This document shows positions 20,308-20,466 of a stretch of DNA of 64,000 bases, in pieces. The stretch comes from a virus (taxonomy: Duplodnaviria > Caudoviricetes): IMG/VR virus record IMGVR_UViG_3300007177_000042; one strand, given 5' to 3'. The notes below the pieces were generated by a model, which was given only the letters and a program-made list of their open reading frames with translations, searched no databases and was not told where the DNA came from. Made by a program: the position numbers and the translations under genes. The stretch's first letter is position 1, and each line of letters begins with the position of its first letter.

Positions 20308-20466
20308 GGTCGGTGCTAGAGGAGCAACTGTTGACTCATTGGGTCGTGGCTCACCGCAAGGTGCGAACCCATTGGTAACAAACTAATAACCATAGTCAAT
20401 GTTATCATGTATTGAGAAATGCCGATTTCGCACAGCGAGTTGGTTCGAATCCAACACCGACCACCA
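20308..20466 (+). ncRNA. tRNA-scaffolded RNA with tmRNA-like TLD topology
   Basis: GGTCGGT/ACCGACC-A-CCA; T arm GTTGG-TTCGAAT-CCAAC; multibranched insert of about 100 nt. Confidence 0.75.

Follow-up and report, generated by a model that had tools for sequence, protein, structure and literature searches.

A natural RNA on a tRNA-like frame with a conserved three-way-junction domain in a phage tRNA array

Introduction

The transfer RNA (tRNA) arrays of phages are usually viewed as a codon supply or as anti-nuclease spare parts. The tRNA frame has also been put to use by design: in the "tRNA scaffold" of Ponchon and Dardel, a structured RNA reportedly replaces the anticodon loop, and the frame is said to give ribonuclease P (RNase P) processing, 3′ trimming and protection from nucleases. 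Among natural phage RNAs, RNA C (species 1 RNA, rnaC) and RNA D are stable RNAs from the tRNA region of phage T4, of unknown role (PMC3014915), and the function of RNA C is still unknown (PMC3014915, PMC9697503). Here, we describe a 159-nucleotide (nt) RNA gene at positions 20308–20466 (+ strand) of a 64,000-nt stretch of viral DNA (Duplodnaviria; Caudoviricetes). This whole stretch, called the window hereafter, corresponds to bases 40906–104905 of a 107.7-kb IMG/VR viral contig (record IMGVR_UViG_3300007177_000042). The gene runs from G1 to an encoded CCA and combines tRNA-like ends with a structured domain of about 100 nt, the insert, at the position of the anticodon loop.

The 159-nt RNA resembles rnaC and RNA D in being a non-coding RNA of about 120–160 nt located inside a phage tRNA cluster. 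With rnaC (139 nt), it further shares a T-arm-like hairpin (CCGGG-UUCGAAU-CCCGG in rnaC) followed by a strand that pairs with the 5′ end, and a long structured body between. However, the terminal helix of rnaC is short and imperfect, its annotated end carries no CCA and its internal fold is a different one. The covariance model of the 159-nt RNA described below gives rnaC 12.5 bits, no better than ordinary T4 tRNAs, and there is no sequence or model homology between the two. RNA C is the closest natural analogue, not a homologue. Among designed RNAs, the engineered tRNA scaffold comes closest, its anticodon loop being likewise swapped for a structured RNA; the scaffold is artificial and has a complete D arm, whereas the 159-nt RNA is natural, has a reduced D arm and carries an evolutionarily conserved three-way junction as its cargo. 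We found no description of the 159-nt RNA in the literature searched, and we rate it as belonging with a known, poorly understood kind, the stable tRNA-like RNAs of phage tRNA clusters.

Results and Discussion

A tRNA-like frame encloses about 100 nt in place of the anticodon loop

The acceptor stem pairs GGTCGGT (20308–20314) with ACCGACC (20456–20462) through seven Watson–Crick pairs, including U3-A70, and its 3′ strand continues into discriminator A73 and the encoded CCA (20456–20466 as a whole). Thirteen nucleotides (GCTAGAGGAGCAA) separate the acceptor stem from CTGT; this reduced D region (GCUAGAGGAGCAA, 20315–20327) contains an AGGAGCA that is invariant among the homologues presented below. 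At the anticodon-stem position stands a helix, Pa, formed by CUGU (20328–20331) and ACAG (20432–20435), from which a 3-nt linker, CGA, leads to a perfect T arm with a canonical T loop (GUUGG-UUCGAAU-CCAAC, 20439–20455). The first pair of the T arm changes from G-C to G-U in homologues. All of these elements lie on the + strand. A preliminary description of this locus, made from the letters alone, had drawn the same frame, and both our reading of the sequence and our own scanner agree with it on the 7-bp acceptor stem with A73-CCA and U3-A70 instead of G3-U70; the CTGT/ACAG helix, the linker and the perfect T arm are likewise present. That description also called the D region stemless: the length of 13 nt stands, while the absence of a stem is uncertain, as a 3-bp GCU/AGC mini-stem is possible in three of the four sequences (RNAalifold pairs positions 8–10 with 16–18, with 91.7% of cells paired).

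The RNA therefore has the 7-bp acceptor stem, the T arm with a UUCRANY loop, the discriminator and the CCA of a canonical tRNA. It fails to form the cloverleaf with a D arm, a 5-bp anticodon stem and a 7-nt loop containing U33, and presents a domain of ~100 nt instead of the anticodon loop. Our scan, which looks for a T arm and then for a 7-bp acceptor stem with NCCA, recovers every normal tRNA plus the 159-nt RNA. Modules of 100–260 nt with an all-Watson–Crick acceptor stem, a T arm and NCCA are present at two places in the window and in none of 200 shuffles, which indicates that the tRNA-like ends of the 159-nt RNA are real. The interval 20308–20466 is not called as a tRNA by ARAGORN and has no match in Rfam 15 at gathering thresholds; in a 1.3-kb search, none of 4227 Rfam families, including the tRNA/tmRNA (transfer-messenger RNA) clan, matches it at E ≤ 10. 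The check by ARAGORN and Rfam suggested in the preliminary description thus leads to no known family. A scan for promoters and terminators around the gene gave results at chance level, and no RNA run is listed for the 159-nt stretch; neither blank has weight as evidence.

Conservation begins at G1 and stops at CCA

Relatives of the phage, found via its baseplate protein (51543–53498), have similar tRNA arrays and include a complete 296-kb genome. Copies of the 159-nt RNA itself came from other sources. One public DNA run contig holds a near-identical copy, with a single change within the RNA (C>T at 20429). A contig from a metatranscriptome library agrees with the RNA over its first 28 nt (window 20302–20335, 4 mismatches) and then diverges, keeping ...TCGTGGCTCACCGAAAGGTGCGA; it carries a diverged homologue with the insert retained. 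Using a pattern made from the core common to the window RNA and this contig, we retrieved four metagenome contigs, giving homologues at L143:1176–1332 (−), L144:3098–3252 (+), to which L145 is identical, and L142:1–135 (−), which is cut by the contig end. These are three further distinct homologues beyond the window copy, or four distinct sequences in total.

All of them sit in dense tRNA arrays, and in the window, L142 and L143, the element comes directly after a tRNA-Tyr or Tyr-like gene. The identity between copies is 76–87% in the RNA body and about 50–57% in the 80-nt flanks, and the conserved segment covers exactly G1 to CCA. The covariance model R1, built from the homologue alignment A1, scores 123–181 bits on its members (181 for the window copy, 175–176 for L143 and L144) and at most 26 bits on everything else, namely 1 Mb of relatives' records, 0.35 Mb of pattern matches and the T4 tRNA region; in the relatives' records, it found ordinary tRNAs only. 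Other searches were likewise without homologues: with BLAST, the region matched ordinary tRNAs only among 50,697 phage records, and the RNA matched nine related phage records only at short T-arm stretches and a coding repeat; pattern scans of IMG/VR gave nothing or chance matches, and a pattern searched in 185,579 GTDB genomes had no match. The neighbouring proteins encoded at 18871–19716 and 20749–21651 have no relatives in IMG/VR.

The three full copies differ at positions that matter for charging. The 3:70 pair is U-A in the window copy, C.A in L143 and U-A in L144, and the discriminator is A in the window copy and U in the two others. In contrast, the insert core (UCGUGGCUCACCGNAAGGUGCGAA) is invariant, which points to selection acting on the insert more than on aminoacylation identity. 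This bears on the reading of the 159-nt RNA as an aminoacylated, non-decoding tRNA mimic, charged by a synthetase that ignores the anticodon and used to donate an amino acid or to sense or titrate factors that bind charged tRNAs. Such a mimic would have the intact acceptor helix, the encoded CCA and the canonical T loop found here, and, the anticodon being missing, only anticodon-independent recognition would be possible. However, most synthetases rely heavily on the discriminator base as an identity element, and its change between A and U among close homologues, together with the mismatched 3:70 pair in one copy, is hard to reconcile with a fixed aminoacylation identity. The RNA also lacks G3-U70 (Ala), a long variable arm (Ser, Leu, Tyr) and G−1 (His). 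We therefore regard a charged mimic as unlikely.

The gene directly upstream of the 159-nt RNA in the window is a tRNA-Tyr(GUA)-like gene (20134–20223) with an 8-bp acceptor stem, a rearranged core and a weak match to the tRNA-Sec model (24.8 bits). An analogous extra Tyr-like gene is found at the same place in L143. Note that the anticodon stem of the 20134–20223 gene is CUGU/ACAG, identical to Pa.

The insert is a two-armed three-way junction maintained by compensatory changes

Helices are numbered below from base 1 of the RNA (window coordinate minus 20307). The insert is a two-armed three-way junction on Pa, CUGU/ACAG, with one arm capped by a GNRA tetraloop and the other by a 7-nt loop, and the helices of this junction domain are maintained by compensatory mutations. 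The junction is closed by Pb, in which CUCA (20335–20338, positions 28–31) pairs with UGAG (20413–20416, positions 106–109); the other copies have CUCC/GGAG and CCUC/GGGG, two pairs being changed on both sides. Arm 1 (20340–20371) consists of Pc, the 5-nt bulge UGGCU and the hairpin Pd. Pc pairs UGGGU-CG with CG-A-ACCCA (positions 33–39 and 57–64), and its UGGGU/ACCCA is replaced by UGGAU/AUCCA, CUAAU/AUUAG and CAGAU/AUCUG in the homologues. Pd, CACC-GCAA-GGUG (positions 45–56), has an invariant stem and a loop that is GAAA in one copy, hence of the GNRA type. Arm 2 (20373–20407) is made of Pf enclosing the Pe′ hairpin (ACUA-AUAACCA-UAGU). Pf, UGGUAAC/GUUAUCA (positions 66–72 and 94–100), shows one double change as well as switches between G-U and A-U, and Pe′, ACUA/UAGU with its 7-nt loop (positions 75–78 and 86–89), becomes AUCG/CGAU and GCUG/CAGU, with three of its four pairs changed on both sides. 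The junction is followed by a 15-nt joining strand (AAAUGCCGAUUUCGC, 20417–20431) in which UGCC and GC are invariant; its GCC could form a putative pseudoknot with the GGC of the UGGCU bulge. All of these segments are on the + strand.

The covariation across metagenomes that the preliminary description had proposed to look for is thus present: on A1, 96.4% of the cells in the refined structure are paired and 8 of its pairs are changed on both sides, values that none of 500 shuffles reaches, and sliding the 3′ partners by 1–3 columns lowers pairing to 32–50%. RNAalifold independently gives the same insert helices and three-way junction. The minimum-energy fold of the isolated insert also recovers the insert helices, including Pf and Pe′, in the window copy and in L143. 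The minimum-energy fold of the whole RNA (z = −2.6), for its part, fails to reproduce the T arm, and single-sequence folding alone is for this reason not trusted. As CUGU/ACAG never varies (four of four copies), covariation speaks neither for nor against Pa.

The branched insert of the preliminary description had been drawn with four helices. TGGGT/ACCCA is borne out by compensatory changes and CACC-GCAA-GGTG is kept as an invariant hairpin with a GNRA loop, but TGACT/AGTCA and TGGT/ACCA are broken in homologues, and shuffled controls score just as well; CUCA/UGAG, UGGUAAC/GUUAUCA and ACUA/UAGU take their place. Its more general proposal of a natural tRNA-scaffold RNA holds, in the sense that an acceptor/T-arm frame carries a conserved structured domain at the anticodon-loop position.

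Other readings of the same nucleotides were tried and rejected. The long-range pairing GUGCGAA/UUCGCAC, which has 7 bp in three copies and 4 bp in L144, is incompatible with the covarying Pc/Pd and would be an alternative conformer at best. CUGUUGA...GAAA, read as a hammerhead-like motif, does not fit at the essential positions A6 and G12 and has no Rfam match. A short open reading frame (ORF) starting from UUG after AGGAG has 15, 14, 3 and 19 codons in the four copies, and is thus not conserved.

These data also bear on the idea of a decaying or rearranged tRNA pseudogene without a function of its own. The array is a mosaic in which several aberrant tRNA-like genes are present, and the element is absent from the available array parts of relatives with 80–91% baseplate-protein identity, both in keeping with such a relic. 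Nevertheless, we disfavour it because compensatory changes keep four insert helices. In addition, the body is conserved far above its flanks, the acceptor stem, T arm and CCA are perfect, and the element occurs in at least four divergent arrays and several public runs. A pseudogene is thus very improbable, and we hold with high confidence that the 159-nt RNA is a real, selected, structured RNA gene.

The tRNA-like ends have the spacing of tmRNA

The window encodes a genuine tmRNA at 39912–40295 (161.7 bits, Rfam 15), which, as had been pointed out beforehand, is separate from the 159-nt RNA and, at 384 nt, far larger. The likeness between their tRNA-like parts, already seen in the preliminary description, is real: a 13-nt D arm with GG, a closing helix and a 3-nt linker before the T arm reproduce the spacing of the phage's own tmRNA. 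More generally, the tRNA-like domain of tmRNA (RF00023) shares with the 159-nt RNA the 7-bp acceptor stem, a D region of ~13 nt that lacks a full stem, the closing helix, the short linker, the canonical T arm and the CCA. A miniature tmRNA or tmRNA mimic, whose tRNA-like domain would engage SmpB and/or EF-Tu and enter or block stalled ribosomes, would fit this spacing, the more so as the phage invests in a trans-translation RNA of its own. In the window copy alone, a frame GCG AAC CCA UUG GUA ACA AAC UAA UAA (ANPLVTN, two stops) can even be read.

However, this frame is not conserved, being read through in L143 and different in L144, and its "resume codon" would lie inside the Pc/Pd helices supported by covariation. 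The alanine identity pair G3-U70 is absent from all full copies (U-A, C.A, U-A), and their discriminators (A, U, U) vary where the phage's own tmRNA has A73. The pseudoknots of tmRNA are absent as well. No match was found at E ≤ 10 to the models of tmRNA, of alpha, beta and cyano tmRNA or of mt-tmRNA, nor any by ARAGORN -m, and no SmpB gene was found in five phage records (the window's record and four relatives); SmpB binding would call for the host protein. The label "mini-tmRNA" given in the preliminary description is therefore abandoned, and we consider a tmRNA or tmRNA mimic quite improbable.

Interrupted tRNA genes occur in related phages

Insertions at the anticodon-loop position are known from intron-bearing tRNA genes, with group I introns in the anticodon loop in bacteria and bulge-helix-bulge introns in archaea. 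The 159-nt RNA could accordingly be seen as an intron-containing tRNA gene, in which the ~100-nt insert would be removed, by itself or by an enzyme, to leave a small decoding tRNA. Related phages do carry interrupted tRNA genes: a second tRNA-Asn(GUU) with a 50-nt insert in its anticodon loop (G003 c95912–96037, G002 c65527–65652, G006 c199596–199721) and a tRNA-Lys(CUU)-like gene whose arms are intact and whose anticodon loop holds a 35-nt insert (G006 280832–280943, +). The interrupted Asn gene of G006 stands directly upstream of tRNA-Tyr, the slot of the 159-nt RNA in the window. When introns are allowed, ARAGORN proposes an Ile(tat) model with a 62-nt intron for the 159-nt RNA.

This ARAGORN model is nonetheless poor: its anticodon stem contains mismatches, and its "variable arm" is long and unpaired. 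The 159-nt RNA also differs from the interrupted Asn genes in having neither a full D arm nor a 5-bp anticodon stem around a splittable 7-nt loop, and the bases beside CUGU/ACAG (UGAC... and ...GC) cannot form a loop containing U33. A group I intron would need more room than its insert offers, and at E ≤ 10 neither group I introns nor self-cleaving ribozyme families give a match; no bulge-helix-bulge can be drawn, and no functional anticodon loop is left. Neither a tRNA-splicing endonuclease (tRNA_int_endo) nor an RtcB gene was found in the window's record and four relatives, one of them complete. Excision of the insert, named in the preliminary description as an outcome that would count against it, is not seen in the public run contigs, and no joint skipping the insert was found in three metatranscriptome runs; this is weak evidence, as it concerns assembled contigs only and the interior of the RNA is uncovered in X15 and X17. 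Finally, conservation is stronger in the insert core than at the identity positions of the acceptor. Overall, removal of the insert as an intron is unlikely.

In the interrupted tRNA-Asn(GUU) of the relatives, the insert is conserved and follows right after C32-U33-G34-U35 (CUGU), and the D, anticodon and T arms are intact (compare window 19813–19888). Its helix changes from GGCC/GGCC to GGCU/GGCU and is still paired via G-U. No bulge-helix-bulge can be drawn for these genes and no splicing enzymes were found. Their 50-nt insert could represent a small intron outside group I, or else a decoy with an expanded loop.

A proposed life cycle of the 159-nt RNA

Taken as a whole, we lean slightly towards the explanation that the 159-nt RNA is a stable, non-decoding RNA on a tRNA frame, representing a small family absent from Rfam that resides in the tRNA arrays of freshwater jumbo phages. 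On this explanation, the gene would be transcribed together with the neighbouring tRNAs of the co-oriented array, and RNase P would cut the precursor at G1. Bacterial RNase P prefers U at −1. The U found at −1 in three of the four copies fits this preference. The 3′ end would be trimmed to CCA as in tRNAs. With its canonical T loop, the RNA probably forms the usual tRNA elbow and meets the elbow-recognising enzymes. The tRNA-like minihelix and elbow would then stabilise the RNA with its insert kept, so that a stable species of ~159 nt may accumulate and expose the three-way junction as a functional surface, being read on the ribosome neither as a tRNA nor as a tmRNA. We judge tRNA-like processing with retention of the insert to be reasonably probable.

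What such a surface would serve is a more tentative matter. The junction domain might be a binding surface or a decoy for a protein or RNA that handles tRNAs, for example a host tRNA-targeting defence nuclease. We think that a binding or decoy role toward a tRNA-handling factor is the most plausible use, although as a claim in its own right a decoy or binding function is no better than possible. More speculative still, and in our view rather doubtful, is the idea that phages naturally use the tRNA-scaffold trick: the frame would deliver and stabilise a compact three-way-junction aptamer or decoy, trapping for instance a host anticodon nuclease or some other factor of tRNA-directed defence or quality control, and the tRNA-framed RNAs of the array would form a counter-defence toolbox.

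Several points weigh against this explanation. The homologues amount to four distinct sequences only, one of them truncated, and the covariation statistics are correspondingly thin; compensatory changes are absent from the tRNA-like helices (acceptor, Pa, T arm), and one homologue has the C.A mismatch at 3:70. The contig from the RNA library includes 19 nt of upstream sequence and could stem from precursor RNA or from DNA carry-over. The ends of transcription, the processing and the stability of the RNA are what we infer, as is its role.

The 159-nt RNA shows that phage tRNA arrays hold, beside tRNAs proper, conserved structured RNAs that borrow the tRNA ends only and carry a different selected domain. 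It places a second molecule, with a defined fold, beside T4 RNA C for comparison within this long-unexplained type, and is a natural counterpart of the engineered tRNA scaffold. Were its domain truly a decoy or aptamer, an RNA-only layer would be added to phage counter-defence. On the practical side, standard tRNA and Rfam annotation misses such genes entirely.

Genomic setting and other tRNA-framed genes of the array

The contig is ~31% complete according to CheckV, from which we deduce a jumbo phage with a genome of roughly 350 kb. The public runs holding the stretch are mostly labelled as freshwater, aquatic, lake-water or aquaculture metagenomes, with one wastewater run (run records). The tRNA array occupies about 8–40 kb of the window and comprises 35 tRNAs (ARAGORN), nearly every one with an encoded CCA. 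It also contains a GOLLD RNA (27101–27563, 212 bits) with a tRNA-Thr(UGU) embedded at 27167–27238. An amber suppressor tRNA (anticodon CUA) is located at 26403–26478 and the first 11 kb of the window (1–11000) have few long ORFs under code 11, which together suggests TAG recoding in part of the phage.

The 159-nt RNA is the tRNA-framed element of the window for which outside homologues and covariation could be assembled, and genes on a tRNA frame that standard tools miss seem to be a general phenomenon in this phage lineage. A 116-nt gene at 10020–10135, called neither by ARAGORN nor by Rfam, has the acceptor stem TGACTGG/CCAGTCA followed by ACCA, normal D and T arms, an odd anticodon region and an extra arm of ~45 nt capped by GGCA. 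At 35593–35677, 30793–30956 and 37136–37239 lie more tRNA-like genes that ARAGORN and Rfam leave uncalled, each with CCA and a perfect acceptor stem; the first of these (85 nt) may have a 9-nt anticodon loop. Among the tRNAs, tRNA-Thr(UGU) at 17048–17137 (90 nt) and tRNA-Ile(UAU) at 30600–30693 (94 nt) have long variable arms, which is unusual for class I tRNAs, and these arms are kept in relatives.

The array finally harbours a small repeated module (stem - AUAGA - hairpin - GAAC - GUGAAAUC - stem), whose closing stems differ between copies. This AUAGA...GAAC...GUGAAAUC module was considered as a relative of the insert and rejected, the resemblance being superficial only. Its copies, at 8774, 18579, 20053, 21912, 22451, 25731, 27582 and 38651, form no part of the 159-nt RNA.
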